A stretch of DNA of 51,062 bases from a virus: positions 1 through 51,062 of IMG/VR virus record IMGVR_UViG_3300015192_000001; one strand, written 5' to 3'. Shown here one piece after another: positions 15,160 to 46,298 of the stretch (positions are counted from its first letter, which is position 1; the number at the start of each line of letters is the position of its first letter). Below the pieces are notes generated by a model. That model saw nothing but the letters and a program-made list of their open reading frames with translations. It was not told the DNA's origin and made no database searches. The position numbers were made by a program, and so were the translations under genes.

Positions 15160-17841
15160 CTAAGTTTTGATCTGGATCTTCACGTCGTCGATCGACGTAA
15201 TGGTCCCGATCTTGCCTTCTGTCTCGAAGGTCCAGCCGCCGGCAGCATCTCCAACGGTTGTTTGATAGGTGTACTGCCAGACCCCGAGTGATATCTTGGT
15301 CATCGCACCGCCGCTCACGGCTCGTACGAATCCAGCGACATAGCCTCCGGTGGGGTTCTTGACATATAGCTTTGCAGTACCAACGTCAGGGTCGATAAGA
15401 CCACCGTTGGAATCTGTAAAGGTTGTCTCGATAATGATGGCGGTGCCAGCTTTGTATGCCAACTCTTGTGGACCCACAATCCTTGATCGCATGACCAAGT
15501 AGCTTTTGTTAATAGTGAGATCGTCCATCCAGCCTTTGCCTCGGATCTTCACTGTGCTGAACAGGAATTCCCTGACTTGCTGGTAGAACTGGATGTATCT
15601 CTGAATAGTGTGTGTACCGGTAAATGAGAGGCTGGCAACGAAGTTCTTCACGTAGACGATCGGCAAGCCGACCCTCTGGACGGTGATGTTCCCGATGAGG
15701 GGCAATGCAGCTGTGAATGTCCGGAAGAATTGACGGAGCCTAGAGAATGTGCCAGTGAATGACAGGACTCCAGCCATATTTCTGAAGTAGGCTTTGCCTG
15801 CAGAAAAGGCCCCAGAGAAGGACAGAGTTCCGGCGAGACTGCGAAGAATAGTGGCGGATCTAGTCCATGTACCAGTGAAGGTGAGGACGCTGGGGAAGCT
15901 CCGGAGGAACGTCCCAACGCGTGACCATGTCCCCGTGAATGAGAGCACACCAGCAAAGGCTCTTAAGAAGATCTTTATCCCGGTGTGAGTTCCCGTGAAG
16001 GACAGGACTGCGGTCTGTGTCCTCTGGAAGATGCCTACACGCGACCAAGAACCAGCGAACGAGAGGACGCCTGCCAGTGCTTGTGCGAAGGGGAAGGATG
16101 CTGGGCGTAGCGCGATTGAGAGTGCGAACCATCCTCCTGCGACATCCGTCGTTGAGGTTGCTGATCCTGTCGCTCCGGCAGGAGTAATGAGTTTGTGGTC
16201 TACCCTCATTACACGCCCGACGCTACCGAATGTCGGAACGTCGTTTGTATAGCCAGTTGGCAGGGTAAGAGTGGTTCCGTTAACGTCCGAAGCAAAGACA
16301 CCGATGTGCCAAGCATTGTCGCTGACTGTCGTAATTGACGGTGCGGTCACCGAGGTAGTCGTACCTATCGAACTCGCTGGAGTCACATCTATCGGAGTAG
16401 CGTTATCTACTCCACTATATGCCGAGACGAACGCATCGACAACACCGTTAGTTGGACCACTGAAAACGAAACTTGCGCCTTCGCTGCTGGCGATGCGGCG
16501 CAGTGTAGTGAATCGGTTGAAAACCCCGGGCGTAAAGTCAACTTCGGTCCAGCCGGTGAGGGTGGCGTGTGGAGGTGAATCGTTCGCTGTAATCGTGGCA
16601 ATTAGAACATCGCCATCGACCACTCCGGTCGGCTTGGTGACTGTGATGGTAGTAGCGCCGTTCGTAAGGTCTGTGTTCGACGAGGCCCTGAAGACGATTG
16701 CTCGCTTCTTCGTCAAGGTTCCAGCGAATGATAGTGCGGCGGTCAGGACCTTCTTCGGGTTCTTGATGATCGAACCGGCGAACGTCAGACCCCCAGTGAG
16801 GCTCCTTGCGAACGTCGCAGCGCGGGTCCAGGTTCCGGTAAACGACAGGACCCCGGCCAGGCTGCGGAAGTAGGCCTTGCCAACAGCGAAGGCTCCAGTG
16901 AAGGATAACGTGGCGGCTAGTGGTCTTAGCATTGTTGCGGCTCTTGACCATGTGCCGGTAAAGGACAGACCGCCTGTGAGTGTTCGTAGAACCGTAGCTA
17001 CTCGTGTCCAGTTGCCGATAAATGACAGTACCCCAGCTAGGACTCTAAGGAAGATACCTACCCGAGAGAAGGACCCTACAAAGGACAGTCCACCCGAAAG
17101 TGCTTGAGTGAAGGTCGATGGCCCCGCGCTTCCTGTACCAAATCGTGGTGTCGGTTGGCGATAGAAGAACCGCATCGCCTGCGGGCCAACGTATTTGTTA
17201 GCAATTCGAATGATTGGTAGGGCTGCGTTGGCCACAACTGCTGTAGCGAATACTTCAGCCGCGACGATGGCCCAGGTCGAGGTCGCCCCCGTCCAGTTCA
17301 TCGTGATCGTGCCGCCAGAGGAAGCCTTGCGTTGCGAGCCGCCCGACTCTCCGGCGATGGCGAGGGCGTGGTGGAGGGTGCCGGTTTCGGTAAGGATGGT
17401 GCCCGCGCCCTCGGCCCAGGAGTCCACCACGATGTTGCCGGTGGTCGTGCCGGTGACATCGACGGTCGGTTCGCCCGATGCTCCGCTGGCGGTGACGCCA
17501 GTGCCGAACGGGGTGGTCTGATCGACTCCGGTGAACGACTGACCGCCGCCGATGGCCGAACCAACCGTCCCGACGAAGGTGACGGTGATGGTGTTCGCGC
17601 CGGTGGCGGGGTTCTTCAGTCCCCACAGGGACGAGTTATCGAACGCGGCGCCGGTGACCTCGGCCAGCCGGGTCAGCGCCACGCCGTTGTAGGTCACGGT
17701 CGATACGCGGTTCCCGGAGGCACCGTCGTAGGAACCGACATCGACGACCAGGGCGAGGTTCGACCCGGTGCAGGTGTGTGACCAGGAAAGCGTCGCGCCG
17801 CTGCCAGTGGCGCTGGTCTTTACGTCGAGAGCGATGGCCAC
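15160..17841 (-). CDS. 893-aa fibre or receptor-binding-like structural protein. It has a duplicated module, each a globular domain followed by an array of 20-aa repeats.
   Basis: GTG start. Two paralogous about 190-aa domains, each followed by L-x-G-x-L-S-F-x-G-x-W-S/T-R-x-x-x-x-x-R repeats. Ig-like C-terminus. Ends on a TAG in frame with terL. Confidence 0.75.
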   Translation of the reverse strand: MAIALDVKTSATGSGATLSWSHTCTGSNLALVVDVGSYDGASGNRVSTVTYNGVALTRLAEVTGAAFDNSSLWGLKNPATGANTITVTFVGTVGSAIGGGQSFTGVDQTTPFGTGVTASGASGEPTVDVTGTTTGNIVVDSWAEGAGTILTETGTLHHALAIAGESGGSQRKASSGGTITMNWTGATSTWAIVAAEVFATAVVANAALPIIRIANKYVGPQAMRFFYRQPTPRFGTGSAGPSTFTQALSGGLSFVGSFSRVGIFLRVLAGVLSFIGNWTRVATVLRTLTGGLSFTGTWSRAATMLRPLAATLSFTGAFAVGKAYFRSLAGVLSFTGTWTRAATFARSLTGGLTFAGSIIKNPKKVLTAALSFAGTLTKKRAIVFRASSNTDLTNGATTITVTKPTGVVDGDVLIATITANDSPPHATLTGWTEVDFTPGVFNRFTTLRRIASSEGASFVFSGPTNGVVDAFVSAYSGVDNATPIDVTPASSIGTTTSVTAPSITTVSDNAWHIGVFASDVNGTTLTLPTGYTNDVPTFGSVGRVMRVDHKLITPAGATGSATSTTDVAGGWFALSIALRPASFPFAQALAGVLSFAGSWSRVGIFQRTQTAVLSFTGTHTGIKIFLRAFAGVLSFTGTWSRVGTFLRSFPSVLTFTGTWTRSATILRSLAGTLSFSGAFSAGKAYFRNMAGVLSFTGTFSRLRQFFRTFTAALPLIGNITVQRVGLPIVYVKNFVASLSFTGTHTIQRYIQFYQQVREFLFSTVKIRGKGWMDDLTINKSYLVMRSRIVGPQELAYKAGTAIIIETTFTDSNGGLIDPDVGTAKLYVKNPTGGYVAGFVRAVSGGAMTKISLGVWQYTYQTTVGDAAGGWTFETEGKIGTITSIDDVKIQIKT
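15592..16077 (-). repeat. Coding tandem repeat array 2, about 7-8 units of 60 bp (20 aa), with unit order parallel to array 1
   Basis: Residues 589-750: LAGVLSFAGSWSRVGIFQRT / QTAVLSFTGTHTGIKIFLRA / FAGVLSFTGTWSRVGTFLRS / FPSVLTFTGTWTRSATILRS / LAGTLSFSGAFSAGKAYFRN / MAGVLSFTGTFSRLRQFFRT ... Confidence 0.85.
16702..17100 (-). repeat. Coding tandem repeat array 1, about 6.5 units of 60 bp (20 aa)
   Basis: Residues 248-380: LSGGLSFVGSFSRVGIFLRV / LAGVLSFIGNWTRVATVLRT / LTGGLSFTGTWSRAATMLRP / LAATLSFTGAFAVGKAYFRS / LAGVLSFTGTWTRAATFARS ... Confidence 0.85.
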
Positions 17842-24697: not shown

Positions 24698-26251
24698 ATG
24701 CCGCAAACAATCTCGTTTTGGTCGCGGGATGCCAAATGGTCTGGCCTTAGCAACTTCGCGCCAGTGACCATCGAGCACAACGGCACCATCTACCGCAGCC
24801 TTGAGCACGCCTACCTCGCATCACGCGTGGCAATCGAGCACGCTGCAGACATCGCAGCAGCGCCTACCGCACGCGATGCGAAGATCATGATGCGCGACCT
24901 ACCGCGCAACCCGCAGCCGCCGAACAAGATCACCACCATGAAAACACTGCTGCTCAAGAAATTCGCACTGGAGCCGTACCGCACGCTCCTGCTCAGCACA
25001 GGCGATACATACCTGTCCCACTACGCGCCATGGGACAGCTTCTGGGGCACAGGCAAAGATGGCAAAGGCGAGAACCGCCTCGGCCACATGCTCATGAACG
25101 TCAGGAGCGAGATCAATCCCGAAACAACCAAACCCACCGCATCAACAGATGCCACAACAAGTATTGCACTCGTAGGCTCGCGTGCGTTCGGAAAGGACCC
25201 GGCCCTGCTCAACGGCAAGGCAGCATGGACCCTCCTGACACGCATCTTCACAGGCATCGAGAAGCGGTACAGCCTCGTGAACATCGTCTCAGGTGGCGCC
25301 AACGGCGTCGACAAGATGGGCGTGTTCATGGCCAAGGATCGTGGACACACCACCACCGTCTTCCCAGCCGACTGGGACCGCCTCGGCAAGAGCGCTGGCT
25401 ACGCTCGCAACGTCACCATCGTCGAGAACTCAGACATGGTCGTAGCCATCATGGACCCCGGCTCCAAGGGCACCAGGCACACCGTCCACCTCGCTATGGA
25501 CGCACGGCTGCCCCTGCGGATCTTCAGCGCCATCGATGGCAGCGAGTACAAGTCGTGCCCCTGCGATGACAAGATCACGCACGACCGTATCAAGGCCGAG
25601 CAAACCTACCAGACAGTATCCATCGCAGGCACAGACGTCCTGATGGAAGGCGATGACGCCCGCATCCACCGCTACGACAAGCCGTACATCGATCCCGAGA
25701 CTGGTGACTTCATCGAGCCAGATGACAGCCTGCTCGGCATCGAGGTCGATGGCAACTGCCAGACCTGCGGCCGTGAGATGCCAGAGGGTGAGTGCGGCAA
25801 GTGCGCCACCGAGGTCTACGGCTTCCTCCCGGGGGACAACGCCCCAGTGGAAACGCCACAGGACCACCCAGACGTCACTGGCCACAACTACTTCATCAAG
25901 CCAGCCAAGGTGGAGTGGCAGCCAAACCCGTTCTCACGCGGCACGTTCTACAAGATCGTGAACGGTCACCGCATGTACACCGTAGACCAGGTGACCAAGG
26001 CTCGCTTCACCAAAGAGGACCTTGAGGCACAAACGATCCGCCTCAACGCTATCCCAGCAGGCGCCTTCAGCTTCGATGTCATCGCAAAGAACGCCATCAC
26101 GCGCAAGTTCCCAGTGATGCCGTTCGCACACGCAAGCCCGTTCGCCAAGGCGCAGCGCAACACGATCGTCAATCCGCCGCTTCCCCAGCTCCCGGCCACC
26201 ATGGTCGAGATGAGCAAGAAGATCGCTGACAACGCTCGGCTTTACCGCTAA
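24698..26251 (+). CDS. Three-part fusion protein, 517 aa: NADAR (YbiA-like), SLOG/DUF2493-like, and an unknown C-terminal domain with a zinc ribbon
   Basis: ATG after GGAAGGA. NADAR motifs: LSNFAPVTIEHNGTIYRSLEHAY and FWGTGKDGKGENRLGHMLM. SLOG/DUF2493 motifs: SGGANGVDKMG, FPADWDRLGKSAGYARN and GSKGTRHTV. CTD contains CQTCG...CGKC. Confidence 0.75.
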   Translation: MPQTISFWSRDAKWSGLSNFAPVTIEHNGTIYRSLEHAYLASRVAIEHAADIAAAPTARDAKIMMRDLPRNPQPPNKITTMKTLLLKKFALEPYRTLLLSTGDTYLSHYAPWDSFWGTGKDGKGENRLGHMLMNVRSEINPETTKPTASTDATTSIALVGSRAFGKDPALLNGKAAWTLLTRIFTGIEKRYSLVNIVSGGANGVDKMGVFMAKDRGHTTTVFPADWDRLGKSAGYARNVTIVENSDMVVAIMDPGSKGTRHTVHLAMDARLPLRIFSAIDGSEYKSCPCDDKITHDRIKAEQTYQTVSIAGTDVLMEGDDARIHRYDKPYIDPETGDFIEPDDSLLGIEVDGNCQTCGREMPEGECGKCATEVYGFLPGDNAPVETPQDHPDVTGHNYFIKPAKVEWQPNPFSRGTFYKIVNGHRMYTVDQVTKARFTKEDLEAQTIRLNAIPAGAFSFDVIAKNAITRKFPVMPFAHASPFAKAQRNTIVNPPLPQLPATMVEMSKKIADNARLYR

Positions 26252-27371: not shown

Positions 27372-27752
27372 ATGCCGAAGAAACCAGCCTATAACGACGA
27401 AGACGCAAAAGACGTAGAAACAACCATCCACGACACATCCTGCTGCGCAATCTCCGACGCCGAAGGCATCGGATCAGTCAAATCCACCGCCGACGCACAC
27501 AACCTACGACGCCGTGCATTCCTTGGCGCCAACAGTGGCTACATCTTCGCAACCTGCGTCATGCCAGAACACAAGGCACAAGTCACACACCTCAAGCGAG
27601 GAGGATGGAAGCAGCTAGCGACGATCAAGAACCCCAACACATGCAAAACCATCGTGCTCATGGGAGCCCACACCTACACGGCAAAACGTCAGCAGAAACC
27701 CACCGAATACAACTACTACGACGACACATACGACTACGGCCACAACTACTAG
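27372..27752 (+). CDS. Hypothetical protein, 126 aa. CC-motif family, paralogous to 29660..30130.
   Basis: ATG after CAGGAGAACAGGA. The pattern CC ... GY-x-[FL]A ... GW/AW ... N-x2-T-x3-V-L is shared with the 156-aa ORF. Tyr/Asp-rich tail. Confidence 0.6.
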   Translation: MPKKPAYNDEDAKDVETTIHDTSCCAISDAEGIGSVKSTADAHNLRRRAFLGANSGYIFATCVMPEHKAQVTHLKRGGWKQLATIKNPNTCKTIVLMGAHTYTAKRQQKPTEYNYYDDTYDYGHNY

Positions 27753-27888: not shown

Positions 27889-28155
27889 ATGACCTACGAC
27901 CCACTCACCGCAACAGGTTTCCAAGACTTCGCAACGAAGTACTACCAAGAACAAGACCACAGCTTCTCAAGGTCAGCGTACGACCTGTCACTCGCTAGTC
28001 GGATGTGCTCAGCGGCCGGATGGCACCCCGACGACTGCTATGTCTACGAAGACGACAAGTTCATCACCGTCGTGCAGATCGACAAGCAAGAAGTCCGCAT
28101 GCAGGCCAAAGACGTCCACAAGACACGACTTGACGACTTAGGAGTTGCACCATGA
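27889..28155 (+). CDS. Hypothetical protein, 88 aa
   Basis: ATG after TAGGAGAAC. Compact ORF. Confidence 0.65.
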   Translation: MTYDPLTATGFQDFATKYYQEQDHSFSRSAYDLSLASRMCSAAGWHPDDCYVYEDDKFITVVQIDKQEVRMQAKDVHKTRLDDLGVAP

Positions 28156-28394
28156 CCAGAACCGAGGTCCTGCTCAGGGATCGCAAACACGGCATCGCCT
28201 TCCTCAAGAACGACCAAGGAAAGATCATCCTCGCCTGCGCTTCCTACGGAAAGTCAAAGCTAATCGCTATCCCACTCAGCCAGGCAGAAGGACTAAGTCT
28301 GCTGAGTGCAGCACAGGCCACGTTCGTTCCCCCGCCCCACTACGAAAACTGGCTCGAAACGCTCATTCGGCTCATGAAAGGAGACAGGCAGTGA
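28152..28394 (+). CDS. Hypothetical protein, 80 aa
   Basis: ATGA coupling upstream and GTGA coupling downstream. Confidence 0.65.
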   Translation: MTRTEVLLRDRKHGIAFLKNDQGKIILACASYGKSKLIAIPLSQAEGLSLLSAAQATFVPPPHYENWLETLIRLMKGDRQ

Positions 28395-29491
28395 CACAAC
28401 TCGGCACCGATCCGGAGTTCTTCATCTTCGACAAGGATGACAAGCCGGTCCCCGCACACACCCTCGGATTCCCAACCAAAGAAAACAAGCTCAAATCAGA
28501 AGACATCGTTGGCGTCTTCGAGCAATACGCCACTCTCTTCCGAGACGGCTACGCGATCGAAGCCAACGTCACATACGCACCATCCTGCCGAGCCATGCTG
28601 GCAACACACATCCGATCAGCCGTACGCGCCATGCGTGCCAAGGTCGGACCGAACTATCACATCGGCACAGAAGCCGCCGTTCGCATCCGGCTTCGTACCC
28701 AGATGCGTGGAGCACCAGACGATGTCTCACACTTCGGATGCGAGCCATCATTCGACGGCTATCGCAATGGTGCAGCCAAGGTAGTCGACATCGACGCCTT
28801 CACCCACAGCTATCGCTATGCCGGAGGACACATGCACTTCGGCACTTTCAACAACAAGTCAGCACTCTACCGTCAAGCCGCAAAAGACGACAACTCCGAA
28901 GCATTGCAAGACCCGACCAACTTCCCACTCATGGCCAAGATCTTCGACCTACTCGTCGGACTGCCTCTCACCATCATCTATGACGACAGCAAGCAGTTTC
29001 TCCGTCGTCGTCACTACGGTCAGGCTGGCGAGTACCGACCACAGATCTACCCAGGCGAACGAGTGGGCTTCGAGTACCGCACACCCCCCCCGCAGCTATG
29101 GAACCACCACGCCATCGCCGGACTGTTCTTTGGCGTAGGCAAGTGGATCGTGAACAACTACGCCACCCTAGCCGAAGACTGGAACCCCAACATCGAGCAG
29201 GATCTGCAGCGTGCCATCAACCATGGCACCCGCGGACAGAACCTCCTGCAGAGCGTTCCAGGGTTCTATACCCCAGAGACAATCCTGTCTCTCAAGGGTG
29301 TCAAGGAAATCAAATCGCTCTTCCTTCCGGACTACACCGGCAGCACCGATTCGGGATGGATCGAGTTCGCCGAGCTCTGGGGCCTAAAGAAGACCATCCC
29401 GGAGCCCAACTTCAAGCGAAGCTACACCTCAGCACCATACGCACCCACCGCACGTCCCAAGTTCAGCTTCATTGCGGCCAAAGCCGCATGA
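28391..29491 (+). CDS. Carboxylate-amine (COOH-NH2) ligase, 366 aa, phage phiEco32-like type 2, in the GCS/GS-like superfamily
   Basis: GTG start (GTGA overlap, GGAGACAGG as SD). Motifs: LGTDPEFFIF, FGCEPSFDG, AGGHMHFG, GQAGEYRPQ and GFEYRTPP. The first about 80 aa of the track ORF overlap two other genes. Confidence 0.7.
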   Translation: MTQLGTDPEFFIFDKDDKPVPAHTLGFPTKENKLKSEDIVGVFEQYATLFRDGYAIEANVTYAPSCRAMLATHIRSAVRAMRAKVGPNYHIGTEAAVRIRLRTQMRGAPDDVSHFGCEPSFDGYRNGAAKVVDIDAFTHSYRYAGGHMHFGTFNNKSALYRQAAKDDNSEALQDPTNFPLMAKIFDLLVGLPLTIIYDDSKQFLRRRHYGQAGEYRPQIYPGERVGFEYRTPPPQLWNHHAIAGLFFGVGKWIVNNYATLAEDWNPNIEQDLQRAINHGTRGQNLLQSVPGFYTPETILSLKGVKEIKSLFLPDYTGSTDSGWIEFAELWGLKKTIPEPNFKRSYTSAPYAPTARPKFSFIAAKAA

Positions 29492-29646
29492 AACACTGGG
29501 GACTGATCCAATTCGAGATCTTCAACATCAGCTTCGGTCTTCTGTTCTACGGACACGGACAGCGACCGAAGGGCACGCCAGTCAGGAAGATCTGGATGTT
29601 CCATCCATTCTTCTATCGCTACCACCACTACTGCGACAACAGCTAG
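29488..29646 (+). CDS. Small aromatic-rich protein, 52 aa (below the track cutoff as its own gene)
   Basis: ATGA coupling to the ligase stop. Sequence MKHWGLIQFEIFNISFGLLFYGHGQRPKGTPVRKIWMFHPFFYRYHHYCDNS*. Confidence 0.45.
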   Translation: MKHWGLIQFEIFNISFGLLFYGHGQRPKGTPVRKIWMFHPFFYRYHHYCDNS

Positions 29647-29659
29647 AGAGGAAAAGAAC

Positions 29660-30130
29660 ATGGGTGTCATTCACAACCAGGGAATCGGACAAGCACTGGC
29701 ACAGTCAGCACCAGCTGGCTACTACATCGTGCCAGAATTCCAAGACAACAAAGCAACAGATCGATACTTCTTGAGAACCAAGAAGAACGGCGACAACTGG
29801 GCCACCTTCAAGGCAGAGACGCTACCAGGATGCTGCGGCGTCGCAGTTCTGTCACACGTCAACGTGTACTACTACGAAAAAGCTGCCGAGATCGCCAGAC
29901 GCAACAAGGTCATCGTCGATATGTTCGTTACTGCTGCTAAGAAGCGCGGTTACGGACTCGCGATGGCAACCCAGAAGGCCACGTCAGCGGCGCTCCCAGC
30001 GTACGACGCATGGGAACACGGACAGCCATTCAACAACGGCAAAACGGACAACGACGTTTTGCTTCTAAAGCTCGATCTCAAGCAGCCCAAGAGAACACCT
30101 GTCAAATACATCGAAACAGGCGGCGAGTAG
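29660..30130 (+). CDS. Hypothetical protein, 156 aa, CC-motif family, with a Pup-type C-terminus ...KYIETGGE
   Basis: ATG after GAGAGGAAAAG. C-terminal codons read directly: cct gtc aaa tac atc gaa aca ggc ggc gag tag. Confidence 0.65.
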   Translation: MGVIHNQGIGQALAQSAPAGYYIVPEFQDNKATDRYFLRTKKNGDNWATFKAETLPGCCGVAVLSHVNVYYYEKAAEIARRNKVIVDMFVTAAKKRGYGLAMATQKATSAALPAYDAWEHGQPFNNGKTDNDVLLLKLDLKQPKRTPVKYIETGGE

Positions 30131-30352
30131 CAATAAGGGGTGAGGCATAGGCCTCACGTGCTGGGGTAGAGGACGGGACCCCTAGCGATGTAGCTCTGGC
30201 AGAAAACACATCCAGTGTTCCAGAGCAAGGGTGCGGTTAAATCGTCTTGCGGTCTCAAAGTGCATTTGGGTTACCCCCAAACAGGCGTCGAGACATATTA
30301 AGGCGCAAGGGACAACCGTAAATCGGTGGAACCAGAGGCCACCAGCCCACTA

Positions 30353-30483
30353 GCTTGTCGGTAGTTCAACGAGATGCCTGCCCAAACGGCTAACGGTTCC
30401 ATCCCGGAAACCCAGAGGGTCAGTACTAATCGGATGCCAGAACACCCGCAAGGACATGGAGGTCGGAATCCTCCCCGACAAGC
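30353..30483 (+). ncRNA. Candidate structured RNA with a tRNA-like acceptor/T-arm module (not a canonical tRNA)
   Basis: 9-bp terminal helix GCTTGTCGG/CCGACAAGC. It abuts a GGAGG-TCGGAAT-CCTCC hairpin exactly as the acceptor and T stems do in a tRNA. UA follows the 5' strand. The interior is about 40 nt too long and no D-arm is found. Confidence 0.3.
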
Positions 30484-30557
30484 TTCTCATCTGCCGAGAC
30501 ATGGCAGAGGACTGACGGGCCTTACCCGTCAACCACTTCGCATACCGAAGGAGCACC

Positions 30558-32225
30558 ATGGCTCTGCATTTCGAGCACCAACCTCCCACCATCATGACCC
30601 TCAAAAAGCCCAAAAAGACCAGCAAAAAGCGTACTTGGGCCATTCCGATCATGTTCGGCAGCACACCCATGCTGCGTCGCTGTCCCAACTGCGACAGAAC
30701 CAGATCCACCACCCACGTCGTCGGATTCTGCGCTGAATGCGAAAGCTGCGTTGCCTGCGGCGCTGCGCCATGGATAGATCGCGACACACGACTCTGCGCC
30801 AACTGCGTATGCCAAACATGTGGCGGCACTAATGCGCCCATGGGTCGTGATGAGGATGGCGACACTGCATGCGGCACCTGTCGCAAGGTCGTCATCTGCA
30901 CGATCTGCTCACGCAACTTTGCTAACTGCCTGAGGAAAGGCGAACAAACACCAACCCAGTGCTACGAGTGCGCCGGACGATCCAAGATGCGCTGCTACTT
31001 CTGCAACGGCAAAGCCAGCAAGATCATGGGAAACGATTCACGAGCCAACCGCAAGTACTACCTCGTCTGCGCCATCTGTCACAACACCTTCTGCTGCTGG
31101 CGCAAAGACTGCATCCCAACCAAACAGTGCGGCGGATGCACCGACAGGCAGCACGAGCAAGAGCAAGCAGACACCAATCCCACACCTCGTTGGAACAACC
31201 CGTTCGGCAACTGGGTCAACAATCCGATCAAGTTCTGGGATGCCACACCAATCACTAGCCGCAAGATCAATCGATCACCCCGAATGCTCGGCATCGAAAT
31301 CGAATGCGCAGGCGCCACAAACGTCACACTCAAAACCAAAGCAGAACTGTACCGAGTGCTCAAAAAGTGGGGCGCCAGCATGGTGTACGACGGCTCACTG
31401 CGCAGCGGCGGATTCGAGATCACCACATCCCCCGCTGCAGGCGACGTCTTCCTCAAGCAGATCGACGAGATCACCGACGCCCTGCGAGCCGCAGGCGCAT
31501 TTGTCGACGAGCAATGCGGTCTCCACGTACACATCGACGCACGAGACCACCACTACGCCGACATCCGCAAGCTCGTGCGCTACTACGCCTTCCTCGAGCC
31601 AGCACTCATCCGTACCCAGCCATTCGATCGCATCCTTCGCCCCAACCCGAACAACGGCAAGTACTACTGCCTACCATGCGGAGAGAAGTACCTAACAGGC
31701 CTCGGTGACACAAGCGCTGAGACCGTCTCCAAGATGTACACCGACATCACTCGAGAGAAACTTCTGAGCAACATCTATGGCACAGACACATGGCGCCCAC
31801 CCAGGAGGGAGCACTACACCCAGGCCAAGTACCACGCATTCAACTTCCACTCATGGTTCTACAAGAACCGACGCACAGTCGAATCCAGGATACACGCAGG
31901 CACAATCGTCCCCAGAAAGATCAAAGACTGGGGCATGCTCTGGGCCAGCATCGTCGATGAGGCCTACCGGATGACAGACAAGGTCATCCCGGTCCCCGGA
32001 CCAGTCGACGACAGCATCGCGCAGCTCAAGCGCGTAGCACCAACCCCACGTATCAAGACCTACATCCAGACACGACTGGATACCTTCCGCAAGAAGTACG
32101 ACGACTACTACGCCACGCAACCTGCAACTTCCATACCCAACAACCCATTCTTCGAAGAAACATTCGAAGCAGAAATTCAAGACCCACCTGAAGACCACGA
32201 CAACTACGAAGAAGAGGACTTTTAA
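30558..32225 (+). CDS. Amidoligase_2-family (GS-like) ligase, 555 aa, with a long N-terminal multi-CxxC zinc-ribbon array
   Basis: ATG after GAAGGAG. 26 Cys, including 11 CxxC pairs, in residues 42-194. Ligase motifs: MLGIEIECAG, YDGSLRSGGFEITTSP, CGLHVHIDA. Acidic tail ...EDHDNYEEEDF. Confidence 0.7.
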   Translation: MALHFEHQPPTIMTLKKPKKTSKKRTWAIPIMFGSTPMLRRCPNCDRTRSTTHVVGFCAECESCVACGAAPWIDRDTRLCANCVCQTCGGTNAPMGRDEDGDTACGTCRKVVICTICSRNFANCLRKGEQTPTQCYECAGRSKMRCYFCNGKASKIMGNDSRANRKYYLVCAICHNTFCCWRKDCIPTKQCGGCTDRQHEQEQADTNPTPRWNNPFGNWVNNPIKFWDATPITSRKINRSPRMLGIEIECAGATNVTLKTKAELYRVLKKWGASMVYDGSLRSGGFEITTSPAAGDVFLKQIDEITDALRAAGAFVDEQCGLHVHIDARDHHYADIRKLVRYYAFLEPALIRTQPFDRILRPNPNNGKYYCLPCGEKYLTGLGDTSAETVSKMYTDITREKLLSNIYGTDTWRPPRREHYTQAKYHAFNFHSWFYKNRRTVESRIHAGTIVPRKIKDWGMLWASIVDEAYRMTDKVIPVPGPVDDSIAQLKRVAPTPRIKTYIQTRLDTFRKKYDDYYATQPATSIPNNPFFEETFEAEIQDPPEDHDNYEEEDF

Positions 32226-32227
32226 AC

Positions 32228-33535
32228 ATGTGCGGACAATTCGGCGTGCAATGGCGAGAGCGACCAGGCGGAGCCAACATCCCGCTCTTCGCCGTACTTG
32301 AGGTCCTCATGGACGACCGCGGTGGTCACTCATGGGGATTCTGGGCCGACGGGGTAGTCCGCAAGGGACTGGGCCGCATCACAGAATCGATCCCAGCCAG
32401 AACATTGGGCGGAGTCAAAACACTCATCGCCCACACCCGCCTCGCCACCACAGGCAAGATCTGCGAGAGCAACTCCCACCCTTTTGAGATGGGAAAGATC
32501 GTCGGCACACACAACGGAATGATCTACAACCACGAGGATCTCGCACGGCACTACGACCGCAAGTTCGAAGTCGATTCCATGCACATCTTCGCCCATCTTG
32601 ACGAAGGCCAAGACCTTCAGGAGCTGCGAGGCTATGGTTCAGCAGTCTGGCTACACACCGACGACCTGAACACCATCAACTTCGTACGCTGGAACAGCGG
32701 AGACCTAGCCATCGCCGAGATCTACAGCAAAGACAAGAAGCTGCTGGGCACTGCATGGGCCTCAACTCCAGAAGCACTCGTCCCAGCCATCGAAACCACA
32801 GGACTCGTCGATCGCCTCATCAAGGTCGATGAAGAGCGCCATTACTACACCAAAAACGCCGAAGTCTTCGCAGAGAACGAAAAGAGCATGAAGTTCGGCT
32901 TCGGTTCAAAGGGCGCATCCACCTTCAGCTCTCACGCAGACAAGATCGGTGGCGAATGGGTCAAAAACGTCTGGACTGCCTATGAAAATGGAGTCCTGCC
33001 AGCCCCCAAGCCGGTGCAGATCTACTCGGGCTTCAGACACAAGCAGAAGCCAACACCCATCGAAGTCCGAGACACACTCGCAAAGCAGGGCCTCAAAGCG
33101 ATCCAGCGGCCGGGTGGCGTCACCATCAAGAACAAATCCCAGTTCGAAGAATGGCCCAAAGACACCCTCACACAAAGTCGCAAGTGCATGAACTGCGATC
33201 TTGCCAACATGAAGACAGTCCGGCACCCCGAGATCGGCGTAGCGCTCTGCTACGACTGCACCAAAGTCACCGATTCCTACGATGACGCTGGACTCCCAAT
33301 CATCGTGCCCAACACCACAGAACACGGCATCGCCCTAGTCGCCAACCTACAAGATGTCGTCACCCTCCAAGATGCCATCAAATACGAAGGCATCGACGAA
33401 GACACACTAGACCCAGACGAAGTCGCCCTACTGGAGTGGATGCGCGAAGGACGCCGTCCCGAAAGCGGCACGCTCTACATCCCAAACAACGAAGAGATCG
33501 AGTTCCCACCCCGAGATTGGGTCGGCATGATCTAG
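32228..33535 (+). CDS. Class II (Ntn-type) glutamine amidotransferase-like protein, 435 aa, with a C-terminal zinc ribbon
   Basis: Met-Cys start (MCGQFG). Motifs: IAHTRLATTG, NSHPF, GTHNGMIYNHEDL. C-terminus contains CMNCD...CYDC. Confidence 0.7.
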   Translation: MCGQFGVQWRERPGGANIPLFAVLEVLMDDRGGHSWGFWADGVVRKGLGRITESIPARTLGGVKTLIAHTRLATTGKICESNSHPFEMGKIVGTHNGMIYNHEDLARHYDRKFEVDSMHIFAHLDEGQDLQELRGYGSAVWLHTDDLNTINFVRWNSGDLAIAEIYSKDKKLLGTAWASTPEALVPAIETTGLVDRLIKVDEERHYYTKNAEVFAENEKSMKFGFGSKGASTFSSHADKIGGEWVKNVWTAYENGVLPAPKPVQIYSGFRHKQKPTPIEVRDTLAKQGLKAIQRPGGVTIKNKSQFEEWPKDTLTQSRKCMNCDLANMKTVRHPEIGVALCYDCTKVTDSYDDAGLPIIVPNTTEHGIALVANLQDVVTLQDAIKYEGIDEDTLDPDEVALLEWMREGRRPESGTLYIPNNEEIEFPPRDWVGMI

Positions 33536-33772
33536 ATGTATCAGATCATTGAGATCCGCATCGCCGTTGACGGAACTGAAGACCGTATCCGAGACCGGAT
33601 TCAGAACAAAGGACAAGAGATCACCCGAAGCCTAGAGACCAATCTCGTAGGCCACGGATTCATTCCACTGCGTCTCATGGGCGCCAACAGCATCATCCCC
33701 AGAATCCGTATCAAGAGTACACACCAAGAACCAGAGCAACTCAGCATCGGACTGAGAGGAGACGAACCATGA
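33536..33772 (+). CDS. Hypothetical protein, 78 aa
   Basis: TAGATG junction upstream and ATGA downstream. Confidence 0.6.
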   Translation: MYQIIEIRIAVDGTEDRIRDRIQNKGQEITRSLETNLVGHGFIPLRLMGANSIIPRIRIKSTHQEPEQLSIGLRGDEP

Positions 33773-34227
33773 GATGCGACAAACGCGTCGGCAGCCTCCG
33801 TTGTCCACAAACAGCAATGGCCGGATTCGTACGGTGCTCGGCACACGTCGCACAGTACCAAAACGAAGGCAGCAACATCGAAGCCCTGCGTGCCACACCA
33901 ACACAAGCCGCAACCCTAGCAACCAACACCTGGACCATGAACCCAACAATGCACTTCGACACCACACAAGCCTTCCATGACATGGATGCAGCCACTGCCG
34001 CTGTAATAGCTGGCTTGGGCCTCCCACCCACCGAAGCACCAGCCAAGAAGGAAGTCACCAAGGTCGTCGACCCAGAGTGTCTGGCACGAGTCATCGCACA
34101 GCTCGATATGCCGAAAGACGACAAGCTCAAGCTCGCCATGGAATTCGCAGAAGCCCTCGTCGAAATGAAGCCAATCAAGTTCAACCGAGACAGCTTCATC
34201 CAACACATCCAGGAGAAGATCGCATGA
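33769..34227 (+). CDS. Hypothetical protein, 152 aa, with a Cys/His-rich N-terminus
   Basis: ATGA coupling at both ends. N-terminus is MRCDKRVGSLRCPQTAMAGFVRCSAH. Confidence 0.6.
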   Translation: MRCDKRVGSLRCPQTAMAGFVRCSAHVAQYQNEGSNIEALRATPTQAATLATNTWTMNPTMHFDTTQAFHDMDAATAAVIAGLGLPPTEAPAKKEVTKVVDPECLARVIAQLDMPKDDKLKLAMEFAEALVEMKPIKFNRDSFIQHIQEKIA

Positions 34228-34337
34228 ACGAGCTCACCGCAGAAGACATCGAACTGCTAGATGGCATCGACCCCGACGATGACGACGACGCCATCTTTCT
34301 CGAACAGTTCTACCTCAAGGGAGGCACCGGAGAGTGA
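34224..34337 (+). CDS. Pup-like small acidic peptide, 37 aa, ending KGGTGE
   Basis: ATG at 34224 after AGGAGAAG, with ATGA overlap. Codons read directly give MNELTAEDIELLDGIDPDDDDDAIFLEQFYLKGGTGE*. Its stop overlaps the next GTG (GTGA). Confidence 0.6.
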   Translation: MNELTAEDIELLDGIDPDDDDDAIFLEQFYLKGGTGE

Positions 34338-35086
34338 AGACGCTCGTCAAGCGGCGGGTGCTCGTCGCCGTAGCCAAGGTAGCGGCGACTCGCCCCGCGG
34401 TTGAGATCCAGCCATATGACGGACCGGCCGCCAACTACATCCAGTTGACGGGCGTCCCCCTCACCATGGCCATTCTCAACGATGAGTACAAGGAGCTCAT
34501 GTCGCCAGTCATGTGCAAGGACTACATCACCGATGCCTTCTGGTCCGAACACAGCAAGAAGCCAATTTCCATCTACGGCTTCAACTGGACATCGGGAACA
34601 ATAGACCCCAGCAAGGTCGTCTATCGCATCGGACTCAAGTTCGGCAACGACGACGATGCCCAAAAGACAACCAACGTCATCGACCTCATCAACCTTTGGG
34701 ACAAAGCACTTGGCTTCAAACCAAGCCAGCTCCTAAAGACCAACGACATCAAGAACCGTGTCCTTGAAGTCGATCGCGCATGGACCGAGCAGCCAATCCG
34801 CATCAGCCTTCTCACCCTCATGCTTCGCATGGGCACCGCCTACACCCCCGGAGAGGGGCTCGAGGCATTCCTCAACAACACCAAGACCAACATAAACACC
34901 GGGAAGAAAGGCCTACGCGCACTCATCCACAGTGGTGACGGCATGCATGTCGCCCAGGCCCAGAACCTCATCCTGAAGATCTACAAGGAGGGAAAGTTCC
35001 CCGCGCAGACCTACGCACAATACAAAAGCCACAGCGAAATCCACAACCGAAGCGGCATCGTCTCAATGGCAGGGAGCAGTAAGTGA
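34334..35086 (+). CDS. Hypothetical protein, 250 aa, lying between the Pup-like peptide gene and the ATP-grasp gene
   Basis: GTG start. Its SD AAGGGAGG is encoded by the KGG codons of the upstream peptide. No motif recognised. Confidence 0.65.
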   Translation: MKTLVKRRVLVAVAKVAATRPAVEIQPYDGPAANYIQLTGVPLTMAILNDEYKELMSPVMCKDYITDAFWSEHSKKPISIYGFNWTSGTIDPSKVVYRIGLKFGNDDDAQKTTNVIDLINLWDKALGFKPSQLLKTNDIKNRVLEVDRAWTEQPIRISLLTLMLRMGTAYTPGEGLEAFLNNTKTNINTGKKGLRALIHSGDGMHVAQAQNLILKIYKEGKFPAQTYAQYKSHSEIHNRSGIVSMAGSSK

Positions 35087-35838
35087 TCGACCTCGTCGTA
35101 GCCTCAGCAGCCAAGACCACCGGACGCTACCTCAGAACAGCCCTCTCTACACTCAATGTAGGGGTCGGTGCAAGCACCAAGCGTGTGAGCTACGGCGTAC
35201 CGCTGCATGTTCCTCATGGCTCCTCGGCCCTCAACGCCAACGCAGGTCGGCTCGACAAGTTCGAGCAGATGAAGAAGCTTAACTCTGCGGGAATCACCGT
35301 GCCCCTGTTCTGGCTTCCAGGACAGACGCCGTCTAAGTTCCCGCTTCTCGCGAGAAAGAGGCATCACAAGGGAGGTACCGACATCATGCCCGTCTTCATG
35401 GCAGAGGAGATGTCATGGCGCGTCCTCGCAGGTGCTGAATTCTTCGTGGAGTACATCCCGTGGCAGGCGGAGTATCGCACATGGATATTCCGCTCAGCTC
35501 ACCTGGGGACCGATCGCAAAGTCCTGACGAACCCGAGTCAGTACAAGAAGATCGGATGCAACGCAAAGAACGGGTTCACGTTCCAGACCGTCCACCAAGA
35601 CGATGTCCCAAGGGCAGCCGTCGAAGCCGCCATGAGGTCAATCCACACACTTGACCTTGACTTCGGCGCAGTAGACATTCTTCTTGGCAAGGACAGTCGA
35701 TACTACGTGCTTGAGGTAAACACGGCCCCCGGGGTCGAGAGCGCAGAGCGCAGGCTACTCCGCTCCCTCGCACAGAAGATCGCCAACTGGAACGCCAACC
35801 CGGTCGAACGTCGCAAAACCTACACACCGACCATCTAA
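35083..35838 (+). CDS. ATP-grasp (RimK-like) amide ligase, 251 aa
   Basis: Motifs: DKFEQMKKLNSAGITVP, RKRHHKGGTD, EYRTWIF and LDLDFGAVDILLGKDSRYYVLEVNTAPG. Confidence 0.7.
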   Translation: MIDLVVASAAKTTGRYLRTALSTLNVGVGASTKRVSYGVPLHVPHGSSALNANAGRLDKFEQMKKLNSAGITVPLFWLPGQTPSKFPLLARKRHHKGGTDIMPVFMAEEMSWRVLAGAEFFVEYIPWQAEYRTWIFRSAHLGTDRKVLTNPSQYKKIGCNAKNGFTFQTVHQDDVPRAAVEAAMRSIHTLDLDFGAVDILLGKDSRYYVLEVNTAPGVESAERRLLRSLAQKIANWNANPVERRKTYTPTI

Positions 35839-35902
35839 ATCATGCTACCACACAAGCATAGTCATGATATCATTCGGAGCAGACTCGATAAGGAGAATGC
35901 TC

Positions 35903-36355
35903 ATGCCAAAGGTTCTGAAGATCTCCTTGCTGGAACAAATCTTGGGCAAGACTCAAACAGAGGAACTGTTGAAGAAAGCTGGGAGTCTGACGGAGACGGC
36001 TGGGAGAACTATTACGGCGGATACGGTCCAGGCTACCAAGCGGTATCTCGAGTGGCTTGCAACCCACGGCCAAAAGCCAGCTTCGTATACGCCGAAGCAA
36101 AGAAGACAGGACCGGATCGCATGGCAGAGAGTAGCGGAGCGGATGCTAATGTCCAACGCCCCGGCTCAACGCCTTATGGCTACGTACCTGAAAGCGGGGA
36201 CGACGACAGCGAATACTGACGTCGCCATACCGTGCCCTAAATGCGGTGTGCCACAACTCGTCCACGGCCTCGACATCCATCTCAGCAGGACGCACGGCAT
36301 AAGAGGCCCGCATTACGGCAAGGGTAAAAAGAGCAGTGGAGCCCAATCACGCTAG
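35903..36355 (+). CDS. Hypothetical protein, 150 aa, with a C-terminal C2H2-like zinc finger
   Basis: ATG 7 nt after AAGGAG. Finger sequence is CPKCGVPQLVHGLDIHLSRTH. The stop lies within TAGCTAGCTAA, which stops all three frames. Confidence 0.55.
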   Translation: MPKVLKISLLEQILGKTQTEELLKKAGSLTETAGRTITADTVQATKRYLEWLATHGQKPASYTPKQRRQDRIAWQRVAERMLMSNAPAQRLMATYLKAGTTTANTDVAIPCPKCGVPQLVHGLDIHLSRTHGIRGPHYGKGKKSSGAQSR

Positions 36356-36504: not shown

Positions 36505-36577
36505 ACGGGGCAATCGTTCAGCGGCAGGACCCTGGGTTGTGAACCCGGCAAGGCAGGTCCAACTCCTGCGTGCCCCT
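36505..36577 (+). promoter_or_regulatory. Structured 5' leader candidate: nested helices with a GNRA-capped hairpin, ending 5 nt before an SD
   Basis: Outer helix ACGGGGCA/TGCCCCT. Inner helix GGACC/GGTCC. Hairpin CTGGGTT-GTGA-AACCCGG. Then cagAAAGGActtccaATG. Confidence 0.35.
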
Positions 36578-36592
36578 CAGAAAGGACTTCCA

Positions 36593-36739
36593 ATGTCTTA
36601 CCTCACCGGTCTTTCCGATCGCCTAATGGACATCGCCTACCACACCAAGAACCAGTACGAAAGCGAGACAATCCAAGAGGCAGCAGAAGCAATCAAGAAA
36701 CTCGACCCAATAAAGCCAAAGGGCTTCCACAAACAGTGA
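36593..36739 (+). CDS. Small protein, 48 aa
   Basis: ATG after AAAGGA. The track ORF 36539..36739 has an unlikely upstream extension. Confidence 0.5.
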   Translation: MSYLTGLSDRLMDIAYHTKNQYESETIQEAAEAIKKLDPIKPKGFHKQ

Positions 36740-39010: not shown

Positions 39011-39014
39011 TATA

Positions 39015-39038
39015 CCCCCAAACACAAGGGGGTTTTTT
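39015..39038 (+). terminator. Intrinsic terminator: CCCCC-aaacacaa-GGGGG followed by TTTTTT
   Basis: Read directly at the convergence point of the two arms. Confidence 0.75.
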
Positions 39039-41848: not shown

Positions 41849-42101
41849 AGGTCTCCAGATAAGTCACAACTGCTTTCGCTTTGTCGAGCGTGAGCCGCCC
41901 GACGATGTAGTGGTTACAGAAGCCGCATAGGAGTCCACGAACCTTGCCTGTCTTATGGTCATGGTCCACGGCAAGCCGGATCTTCTTGGGAGGCTTACGG
42001 CAGATGGCACAAAGTCCATCCTGCCTGGTGAGCATTCCGTCGTAGTCGGTGAGGGTGAGTCCGTACTTCTTCTGTAGATAGCGCTCACGCGCTGATGTCA
42101 C
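41841..42101 (-). CDS. Endonuclease VII-family (HNH-superfamily) nuclease, 86 aa
   Basis: Motifs: CAICRK... and VDHDHKTGKVRGLLCGFCN. Confidence 0.75.
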   Translation of the reverse strand: MTSARERYLQKKYGLTLTDYDGMLTRQDGLCAICRKPPKKIRLAVDHDHKTGKVRGLLCGFCNHYIVGRLTLDKAKAVVTYLETYG

Positions 42102-42772
42102 TCAGCAGCGATTTCGTCAGCCAACCCATACTTTACGCACTGGTCCGCATCCAAGATCCATTCGCCGGTCTTGATGCGTCGCTTGATATCGGCCTCTTTG
42201 AGATTGCTGTGGTGTGCAAGCAGTTTGACCAGTCGGTTGTTGAGGCGCTCAAGGAAGGCCGTCTGGTTCTTCATTTCCTCGAGAGAGCCGCGGGCCCCGG
42301 CCTGAACCTCATGAATGAGGAAGTAGCTGTTGGGGGTTACGACTCGGGTGCTACCAGCCTGGAGCAGGACGCCGGCCATGGAGGCCGACATGCCCATGCA
42401 GACTGTGCGGATCGGAGTACCCTCGGCGATGACACCACGGAGATAGTCGAAGAGTGCTAGTCCATTGAGGACATCACCCCCGGGGCTGTTGAATCGAATC
42501 GTGATCTCTGACTTGGGGGCCTGTCGGGCCCACTTAGAGATCTGGTCGATCACCTCGGCGACGCTGCCCTTGTCGACCTGCGTACCGAAATCGAGGATGC
42601 GATTACGTGCGTTACTGGTGGACTGTTCGCTGGCGAGGGACCGGAACTCATCGAGCTCGATCTCTGCTTTTGATGCGCTGGCTTTGGCTTCCCGAGCCTT
42701 GGCTCGGTAGAAGTCTGCTTCTGCAGTGAACTTCTCAGCCTGAGCAGCAGACACTGCAATGGCTTTGGTCAA
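42098..42772 (-). CDS. ClpP-family (S14) serine protease, 224 aa, with an N-terminal coiled coil
   Basis: TTG start. Motifs: FNSPGGDVLNGLALFDY, CMGMSASMAGVLLQAG and FLIHEVQ. Confidence 0.7.
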   Translation of the reverse strand: MTKAIAVSAAQAEKFTAEADFYRAKAREAKASASKAEIELDEFRSLASEQSTSNARNRILDFGTQVDKGSVAEVIDQISKWARQAPKSEITIRFNSPGGDVLNGLALFDYLRGVIAEGTPIRTVCMGMSASMAGVLLQAGSTRVVTPNSYFLIHEVQAGARGSLEEMKNQTAFLERLNNRLVKLLAHHSNLKEADIKRRIKTGEWILDADQCVKYGLADEIAAE

Positions 42773-46215: not shown

Positions 46216-46298
46216 TACTTGAAAAAGATGAGGAACACGATGATCGTGGCGGCGATGACGAAGGTGCCGGCGGGGTTCTCTTTGATCCACTTGCTCAT
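46215..46298 (-). CDS. Small hydrophobic peptide, 27 aa, translationally coupled to int
   Basis: ATGA overlap with the int stop, and GGAGG 6 nt upstream. Sequence MSKWIKENPAGTFVIAATIIVFLIFFK*. Confidence 0.45.
   Translation of the reverse strand: MSKWIKENPAGTFVIAATIIVFLIFFK

Follow-up and report, generated by a model that had tools for sequence, protein, structure and literature searches.

The phage genome of IMG/VR record IMGVR_UViG_3300015192_000001 (positions 1 to 51,062; this whole stretch is referred to as the window) contains an operon that is a lineage-specific version of a widespread phage module, the gene set itself being already known. The module was shown to comprise three predicted ATP-dependent carboxylate-activating ligases, of two folds, plus an N-terminal nucleophile (Ntn) amidotransferase. 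Encoded among them in the window is an acidic peptide of 37 amino acids (aa) that ends in Gly-Thr-Gly-Glu, here called the GTGE peptide. We tentatively favour the view, to which we give somewhat less than an even chance, that the enzymes modify or conjugate the C-terminal Glu of this cis-encoded peptide.

The four enzymes and the GTGE peptide

For comparison, six independent loci were obtained through amidoligase homologues (34-56% identity): L005, L007, L008, L012, L013 and L014, with L006 being the same region as L005 from a second sample. The genes that carry the argument are:

28391-29491, plus strand: COOH-NH2 ligase type 2, 366 aa, GTG start (Pfam COOH-NH2_lig, PF14395)
30558-32225, plus strand: Amidoligase_2, 555 aa, with a Cys-rich, zinc-ribbon-like N-terminal region (residues ~1-235) and a glutamine-synthetase-fold catalytic domain
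32228-33535, plus strand: class II (Ntn) glutamine amidotransferase (GATase) with a ~230-aa C-terminal region (Pfam GATase_6, PF13522)
34224-34337, plus strand: 37-aa acidic peptide ending ...FYLKGGTGE (sequence MNELTAEDIELLDGIDPDDDDDAIFLEQFYLKGGTGE)
35083-35838, plus strand: ATP-grasp ligase, 251 aa (Pfam RimK, PF08443)

An initial annotation, made from the DNA letters alone, had placed the four enzyme genes at these coordinates, and they are real: each product scores above its own curated Pfam gathering cut-off (the cut-off meant for all Pfam scores below), PHROGs concurs, and profile searches place all four in ligase or amidotransferase families. The same annotation had described TAGATG, ATGA and GTGA junctions from 30558 onward as the mark of a coupled operon, and these are present. 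Between 30558 and 35838 successive genes are spaced by +2, 0, -4, -4, -4 and -4 nucleotides (nt), the junctions being in order TAAACATG (gap of 2), TAGATG (gap of 0), ATGA, ATGA, GTGA and GTGA (4-nt overlaps). Overlaps of 4 nt likewise link the genes between 27889 and 29646, and the sole strong plus-strand terminator-like site lies 3' of the operon, at 39014-39033. This layout shows module genes that are predicted to be translationally coupled and co-translated as one operon.

The COOH-NH2 ligase matches PF14395 with 47.7 bits against a cut-off of 25 (E 1.6e-12), the aligned part being residues 182-281 only, and PHROGs phrog_3815 (5.6e-19) over residues 4-231. Homologues in L005, L008 and L014 are 36-41% identical, and D7-P8-E9, E57, H147/H149 and E228-Y-R230 are invariant among six homologues, those of the cultured phages TC6 and CVT22 included. 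A profile search found no relative by sequence in PDB; the fold assignment is sequence-based. For the amidoligase (PF12224, 78.1 bits against 22; PHROGs amidoligase, 2.5e-24) 69 homologues were found, and in 60 sequences E247, E249, D278, E287, H323, H325, R358, E442 and R444 are invariant. Its AlphaFold2 (AF2) model has a predicted local distance difference test score (pLDDT) above 90 over most of the catalytic part, and the top 50 Foldseek matches of the model consist of glutamine synthetases, the best at 1.8e-6, and of YbdK, a carboxylate-amine ligase (3.9e-5). In both of these glutamine-synthetase-like ligases the invariant positions include predicted catalytic residues that would bind metal and phosphate.

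The amidotransferase matches GATase_6 with 40.2 bits against 27 and a PHROGs family labelled 'aminotransferase' (1.3e-17). Its N terminus is Met-Cys-Gly, with the nucleophile Cys directly after Met, in the window, L005, L007, L008, L013 and L014. Among NCBIfam models only the N-terminal domains of GlmS, PurF, EgtC and AsnB match, far under their cut-offs, and the C-terminal ~230 aa match no Pfam or NCBIfam family and contain no recognisable synthase domain.

The ATP-grasp ligase is 45-67% identical to its homologues in L005, L007, L008, L013 and L014, with LDFGAVD and LEVN.APG invariant. It matches Pfam RimK with 24.7 bits against 21, over residues 181-236 only, and PHROGs phrog_2599, S6 glutaminyl transferase (4e-22); in PDB its profile finds Ddl (6.6e-6) and RimK (5.9e-5). 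The best NCBIfam matches are the ribosomal-peptide maturases MvdD/MvdC and RimK-family alpha-L-glutamate ligases, all far under their cut-offs: 23.7 against 475 and 22.5 against 425 for MvdC/MvdD, 22 against 143.4 for rimK_fam and 20.6 against 331 for PRK10446. The product is thus a predicted ATP-grasp ligase and not a RimK orthologue. No cluster protein has curated NCBIfam membership.

The GTGE peptide gene has a Shine-Dalgarno sequence, AGGAG, 8 nt upstream and overlaps each neighbour by 4 nt. Counterparts occupy the same position in L005 (...NIYAGSGTGE), L007 (...DMYLRNGTGE) and L014 (...QMYVMGGTGE), always just 5' of the ATP-grasp gene or of the gene for p250, a further protein of the operon, and the peptides are acidic, with an isoelectric point (pI) of about 4. 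By this conservation, 34224-34337 is a real gene. The end Y-x-x-x-G-T-G-E-stop is kept in the four diverged loci, the amidoligases of which are 35-56% identical to that of the window; the residue before G-T-G-E is G, S, N or G, and only G-T-G-E is invariant. Third positions of the Y, G, T, G and E codons vary synonymously among the four. Since these positions differ, the comparison shows selection on G-T-G-E that would act on the peptide itself, and not only on the overlapping Shine-Dalgarno sequence or start codon that serves the next gene. When 95 loci were translated in six frames, eight G[TS]GE ends appeared, five of them at the GTGE-peptide position.

Distribution of the module among phages

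A profile built from six homologues of the ATP-grasp ligase found more than 521 IMG/VR relatives, and 80 loci were fetched via the ATP-grasp gene alone. In the large majority of these 80 the other three families are encoded on the same strand no more than a few kb away, and since the loci were fetched by the ATP-grasp gene alone, clustering of the four families is beyond chance. Families were called with iterated hidden Markov models (HMMs), and gene order was coded as C (COOH-NH2 ligase), A (amidoligase), G (GATase) and R (ATP-grasp). Orders were counted over 91 loci with at least one of the four families, including the cultured-phage and near-relative loci; the commonest are G-C-A-R (25 loci) and C-A-G-R (9, the window included). 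The genes are therefore syntenic in related phages and not scattered, as the initial annotation had expected. Gene adjacency only suggests as partner of the amidotransferase the amidoligase in the window, or the COOH-NH2 ligase in the G-C-A-R loci.

Cultured phages annotated with the same set are TC6/PA11 and CVT22 (Zobellviridae) and NV1 and UFV-P2 (LUZ24-like relatives). In these and in phiEco32 the four Pfam families share one strand of the early or replication region and are mostly neighbours, and NV1 and UFV-P2 share the order of the window: C, an open reading frame (ORF) of ~186 aa, A, G, an ORF of ~72 aa, R. Identity to the window is, however, only 25-37%, and the window has neither the gamma-glutamyl cyclotransferase of NV1 and UFV-P2 nor the extra amidotransferase of TC6 and CVT22.

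The literature on these clusters supports the statement of the initial annotation that the role of the module is experimentally open: we found no biochemistry for it, and in 2023 the functions of phage amidoligase-type clusters were still said to remain to be explored (PMC10580990). The initial annotation had also mentioned a 2009 prediction by the Aravind group that such clusters build or attach peptide tags. What PMC10580990 relays is a proposal by Iyer et al. 2009 of cell-wall modification and superinfection exclusion for the phiEco32 cluster, not specifically of peptide tags; for mycobacteriophage Marvin it relays a suggested secondary-metabolite role. From viral contigs it was reported in 2021 that amidoligase and amidotransferase genes are co-associated with thymidine-hypermodification genes (PMC8989533).

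The lineage of the window has as its backbone a COOH-NH2 ligase, an amidoligase with the ~235-aa Cys-rich N terminus, an amidotransferase, one to three small ORFs and an ATP-grasp ligase. To the widespread module it adds the zinc-ribbon amidoligase N terminus, the GTGE peptide, p250, two GNAT-like proteins and a structured RNA. In the 45.5-kb L005 a second amidoligase (14999-15946, 315 aa), which has no zinc-ribbon region, directly follows the ATP-grasp gene; the window has none. In the IMG/VR loci L047, L093, L078/L080 and L059 the ligase genes are interleaved with several small paralogue-like ORFs, with the C-terminal endings DR[DE]DDI, DDEDD[VI], FKGN.K and ALxCL[KQ].

Structured RNA and other features of the operon and genome

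The remaining features in and beside the operon are:

27372-27752, plus strand: GNAT-like protein, 126 aa, paralogue of the GGE protein
28152-28394, plus strand: 80-aa ORF overlapping both neighbours by 4 nt and coupled to the COOH-NH2 ligase gene
29488-29646, plus strand: 52-aa basic, aromatic-rich ORF (MKHWGLIQFEIFNISFGLLFYGHGQRPKGTPVRKIWMFHPFFYRYHHYCDNS)
29660-30130, plus strand: GNAT-like protein, 156 aa, ending ...ETGGE (the GGE protein)
30131-30557, plus strand: candidate structured RNA (427-nt gap, with a 179-nt core at 30301-30479), directly 5' of the amidoligase gene
33536-33772, plus strand: 78-aa ORF, its start abutting the GATase stop (TAGATG)
33769-34227, plus strand: 152-aa ORF with a Cys-rich N terminus and 4-nt overlaps on both sides
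34334-35086, plus strand: p250, between the GTGE peptide and ATP-grasp genes
35903-36355, plus strand: 150-aa ORF, 3' of the ATP-grasp gene

The structured RNA in the 427-nt gap had been missed in the initial annotation. The gap DNA is conserved in L005, L007 and L012, where the RNA lies at 9686-9845, 1039-1217 and 2085-2250, respectively, and its core is predicted to fold into seven helices of 31 pairs, with 97.6% of cells paired and compensatory changes in 12 of the 31 pairs. Slid controls, in which the partners were shifted by 1-3 columns, gave 24-51% paired and 0-1 compensatory pairs. Several of the G-U pairs fit the plus strand. With a covariance model the four copies score 132-175 bits, and no other match turns up in 1.36 Mb. 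Among the 4227 covariance models of Rfam nothing reached the gathering threshold, the sole match at E up to 5 being a chance snoRNA fragment, and a pattern scan of IMG/VR found no extra copies. Three pattern matches in metagenomes of the Joint Genome Institute (JGI) had no wider similarity, and the one inspected (L011) lay inside ORFs; they were treated as chance. The RNA is confined to loci with an amidoligase at least 41% identical to that of the window, always directly 5' of the zinc-ribbon amidoligase gene; it is missing from L008, L013 and L014, all of which have a zinc-ribbon amidoligase. Its role may be that of a leader or regulator of the operon running from the amidoligase to the ATP-grasp gene, or that of a partner of the zinc-ribbon-rich amidoligase. 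Downstream of the RNA, a T-arm-like GGTTCGA(A/C)TCC occurs in L007 (1271-1349), L005 (~9940-9990) and L012 (~2400-2440), and the window is without it. In L007 the T-arm belongs to a tRNA-like element that Rfam matches weakly to tRNA-Sec (24.5 bits) and that has the anticodon loop CGUCAAG, possibly with UCA as anticodon; ARAGORN called no tRNA in L005 or L007.

The protein p250 has homologues in L005 and L007 (44-48% identity) and is absent from the other 80 loci, and its family has 447 representatives in a 1.8-billion-protein library. C61, W150, S158, R165, H237 and G241 are invariant. The AF2 model has a pLDDT of 94 and finds no fold match in PDB (best E 0.42), where there is also no sequence match; 58 family members match nothing in Pfam, and BFVD returns one uncharacterised phage protein (8e-9).

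Two further candidate substrates had been named in the initial annotation, a protein ending GGE and a 52-aa aromatic peptide. The GGE protein exists, and its one close homologue (L007:80-556, 41% identity, ending ...VQGGE) has the same ending, but it is a member of a GNAT-like family, with a paralogue at 27372-27752. The nine residues preceding GGE in the L007 homologue have diverged, and the GGE codons are identical in the two loci, which makes the evidence for a conserved GGE end weaker; among 12,623 ORF segments of 50 aa or more, 6 have such an end. The two window copies fall in one iterated-HMM family with members in 11 loci, and the family profile retrieves 12 PDB entries at E up to 1, every one a GNAT acetyltransferase, of which the best, 1yr0, is weak (E 0.006). 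The acetyl-CoA motif R/Q-x-x-G-x-G/A is present in the members from L035, L045, L017 and L024 and missing in both window copies. It seems more likely that the GGE protein is a fifth or sixth enzyme, or an adaptor, than a simple substrate. TC6_050 and CVT22 gp57 were considered as homologues, and no homology was found. As for the 52-aa ORF (pI 9.7, with 18 F/W/Y/H residues), it exists, but is conserved in one relative only: it shares FG..F.G..QRP[KR]GTPVRK[IV]W.F.PF.Y with L013:2261-2416 (51 aa), the only two matches of this motif in all loci.

Of the other small ORFs, the 80-aa one has a homologue at the same position in L005 (39% identity, 1e-7), and the 78-aa one has a homologue in L007 (43%, 8e-13) and no family or PDB match. 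The idea of a ubiquitin-like GG protein following the amidotransferase was dropped, as the L013 ORF there (...LGG) and the L008 ORF are not detectably related to the window and L007 homologues. The 152-aa ORF has a homologue in L007 (34%, 5e-17), and the ORFs at the same position in L005, L008 and L014 have a C...C...C..H pattern in common with it, by eye only. A homologue of the 150-aa ORF, 51% identical, follows the second amidoligase in L005/L006; this ORF may or may not belong to the system. PADLOC found no known anti-phage defence system among the nine cluster proteins tested.

The window is a complete metagenome contig from JGI and represents a tailed phage genome, with no close relative among GenBank phages by megablast of positions 28000-36000. 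Its genes lie on the minus strand from 1 to ~22.4 kb, on the plus strand from ~23.7 to 39 kb and on the minus strand thereafter to the end. Landmark genes are:

3135-4058: major head protein
13690-14859: large terminase
24698-26251, plus strand: 517-aa protein with NADAR (2e-18) and SLOG/YspA/DprA-like domains and a Cys-rich C-terminal region
36507-36578, plus strand: tRNA-His (GTG anticodon), just 3' of the operon
42098-42772, minus strand: ClpP protease (1.9e-33), with one also in L005
43825-45081: DnaB
46295-47275, minus strand: tyrosine integrase

An endolysin-like protein, a primase, an RNase H-like exonuclease and SSB are also encoded, and the tRNA-His is the only tRNA. An ORF at 36539-36739 overlaps the tRNA-His and is doubtful as a gene. 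Because of the tyrosine integrase, the phage may be temperate. The NADAR-SLOG fusion, 5' of the ligase operon and with a related protein at the same place in L005, points to a function related to NAD or ADP-ribose, to judge from its domains. Four minus-strand ORFs of the structural arm (691-2451, 5491-9342, 9355-11892 and 11897-13708; 586-1283 aa) have no Pfam or PHROGs match.

Possible substrates and products

If the enzymes do act on the GTGE peptide, a ligase would activate a carboxylate of the terminal Glu as an acyl-phosphate, as with PafA on Pup-GGE and RimK on ribosomal protein S6. The activated Glu would then be joined to an amine, which could be ammonia derived from the amidotransferase, amino acids added by the ATP-grasp ligase, or a lysine of a target protein; the ammonia route would turn Glu into Gln or a C-terminal amide. 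Such a reaction might end in a host or phage protein tagged with the peptide, or in a small product that is assembled on the peptide as scaffold before being set free. The invariant Cys and His of p250 make it a candidate for the releasing or processing step, and p250 and the GNAT-like proteins together could provide processing or acyl transfer.

Several known systems resemble parts of this scheme. In ergothioneine synthesis the GCS2-type ligase EgtA adds a gamma-glutamyl group that a class-II amidotransferase-like Ntn hydrolase, EgtC, later removes. EgtC is among the weak matches of the window amidotransferase (6.8e-5), but scores 22 against a cut-off of 219, and the window has no EgtB or EgtD partner. 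RimK extends the C-terminal Glu of S6, and like the graspetide maturases (microviridin, MvdC/MvdD) it is an ATP-grasp enzyme acting on a ribosomal polypeptide; these are the best family-level matches of the window ATP-grasp ligase. That enzyme, however, reaches only 22-24 bits against cut-offs of 143-475, with its C-terminal half alone aligning, and the GTGE peptide shows no evident core motif or leader of the graspetide type. In pupylation, Pup ends in GGQ or GGE and its gene can directly precede pafA; PafA is a glutamine-synthetase derivative in which the terminal Glu is placed where glutamine synthetase binds glutamate, and Pup-GGE is activated on the side chain of that Glu (PMC3511204). 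The likeness lies in a peptide that is small and acidic, has a Gly-rich end closing with Glu and is encoded beside carboxylate-amine ligases of the glutamine-synthetase fold. The differences are that the window peptide ends in G-T-G-E (GGTGE), as opposed to G-G-[QE] in Pup, with GGE found on the GNAT-like protein; that the top 50 matches of the amidoligase model are to glutamine synthetase and YbdK, with neither PafA nor Dop among them; that the window has no Mpa or proteasome genes; and that its amidotransferase and ATP-grasp ligase have no counterpart in pupylation. In PEARL systems, the C terminus of a small ribosomal peptide is the site where amino-acid-derived products ('pearlins') are assembled before being cleaved off, according to two reports (PMC11962472; bioRxiv 10.1101/2024.03.12.584671). 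The likeness is in logic only, since the ligases described there are LanB-like and aminoacyl-tRNA-dependent, and none was found in the window.

A number of observations weigh against action on the peptide. Neither a substrate nor a product has been observed, and chemistry of the glutamine synthetase, PafA or RimK type is inferred from folds and gene context. The GAR-TGA end of the peptide gene also provides the overlapping start codon of the next gene, and in two loci its GG codons overlap a Shine-Dalgarno-like GGAGG, so that the DNA itself could account for part of the GTGE conservation. L008, L013, NV1 and the Zobellviridae clusters lack the peptide, from which it follows that the core module works without it or has another substrate there. 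The initial annotation had called the peptide Pup-like; while the gene is real and its G-T-G-E invariant, no similarity to Pup was found by Pfam (E up to 10), by phmmer against PDB (no Pup chain) or by BLASTP against M. tuberculosis Pup (zero alignments), and PafA and Dop are absent from the top 50 structural matches of the amidoligase model. Homology to Pup was therefore dropped, and Pup is kept as an analogy only. A caution comes from Citrobacter phage CVT22 (L002, NC_027988.2 28954-47541, reverse complement), in the early region of which ~18 small ORFs (63-118 aa) end in ...LENE, a dozen of them in the cluster. These tails were rejected as substrates, since they also occur on ORFs outside the cluster and their DNA, TGGAGAATGAATAATG, contains the Shine-Dalgarno sequence and start codon used by the next gene, as in the junction repeat TGGAGAATGAATRATG; the LENE end is best explained by a junction cassette. 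It was for this reason that the GTGE end was checked at the codon level, a check that it passed. Finally, the processing role for p250 is a guess, as it has no recognisable fold.

The more elaborate picture, of a phage peptide-conjugation or scaffold-peptide system in which the activated terminal Glu belongs to an independently arisen Pup-like tag or metabolite carrier, and in which the upstream RNA functions as regulator or cofactor, is unlikely as a whole. On the unlikely side too, if less markedly, is a small-molecule or cell-envelope product: a gamma-glutamyl or peptide-like metabolite, or a change to peptidoglycan or the cell surface that blocks superinfection, with the small ORFs as unrelated early genes or coupling spacers. 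This is the direction already suggested for phiEco32 and, as a secondary metabolite, for Marvin in the relayed proposals above, and it suits the many phages that have the core module and no GTGE peptide. The gamma-glutamyl cyclotransferase beside the ATP-grasp gene in NV1 and UFV-P2 would indicate gamma-glutamyl chemistry on small amines, and the ATP-grasp profile fits D-Ala-D-Ala ligase as well as RimK. Yet such a product leaves unexplained why four diverged loci keep G-T-G-E, at the peptide level, in a fixed position, and the searches of the operon returned no transporter, envelope-targeting signal or peptidoglycan enzyme.

Modification of nucleic acid, whether hypermodification of phage DNA against restriction or a change to RNA, possibly the upstream structured RNA, is quite improbable. 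The co-association with thymidine-hypermodification genes (PMC8989533) would fit, as would the ~235-aa Cys-rich, zinc-ribbon-like region on the amidoligase of the lineage, the conserved structured RNA 5' of the amidoligase in the four closest loci and the tRNA-like element 3' of it in relatives. Against this, Pfam and PHROGs searches of the ~45 window ORFs, several large ones of the structural arm matching nothing at all, gave no match to 5-HMUDK, aGPT-Pplase, dUMP hydroxymethylase or TET/JBP; the RNA is lacking in L008, L013 and L014 despite their zinc-ribbon amidoligases, and could be a mere regulatory leader. Phage annotations often read 'glutathione synthase/RimK', 'GlmS-like aminotransferase' or 'AMG' (auxiliary metabolic gene), but that the genes aid glutamine, glutamate or glutathione-type metabolism of the host is very improbable. 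The cut-offs of housekeeping families are far from reached (GlmS, 33.6 against 418; PurF, 27.1 against 350; RimK family, 22 against 143; Ddl, 18 against 243), the amidotransferase has no synthase domain that can be recognised, and both glutamine-synthetase-like ligases fall in phage-centred families and not in GlnA or GshA.

The four-enzyme module is among the commoner predicted enzyme sets of tailed phages without an assigned function; Pseudomonas and Klebsiella phages relevant to therapy carry it, and its annotation goes back to 2009. The structured RNA, and p250 with no match to a solved structure, are new objects in their own right. What this lineage gives, and the cultured examples lack, is a short conserved cis-encoded peptide with an invariant C-terminal Glu, which can be tested as a substrate; if the peptide does prove to be a tag or scaffold, the module would represent a new viral chemistry of protein or peptide modification.

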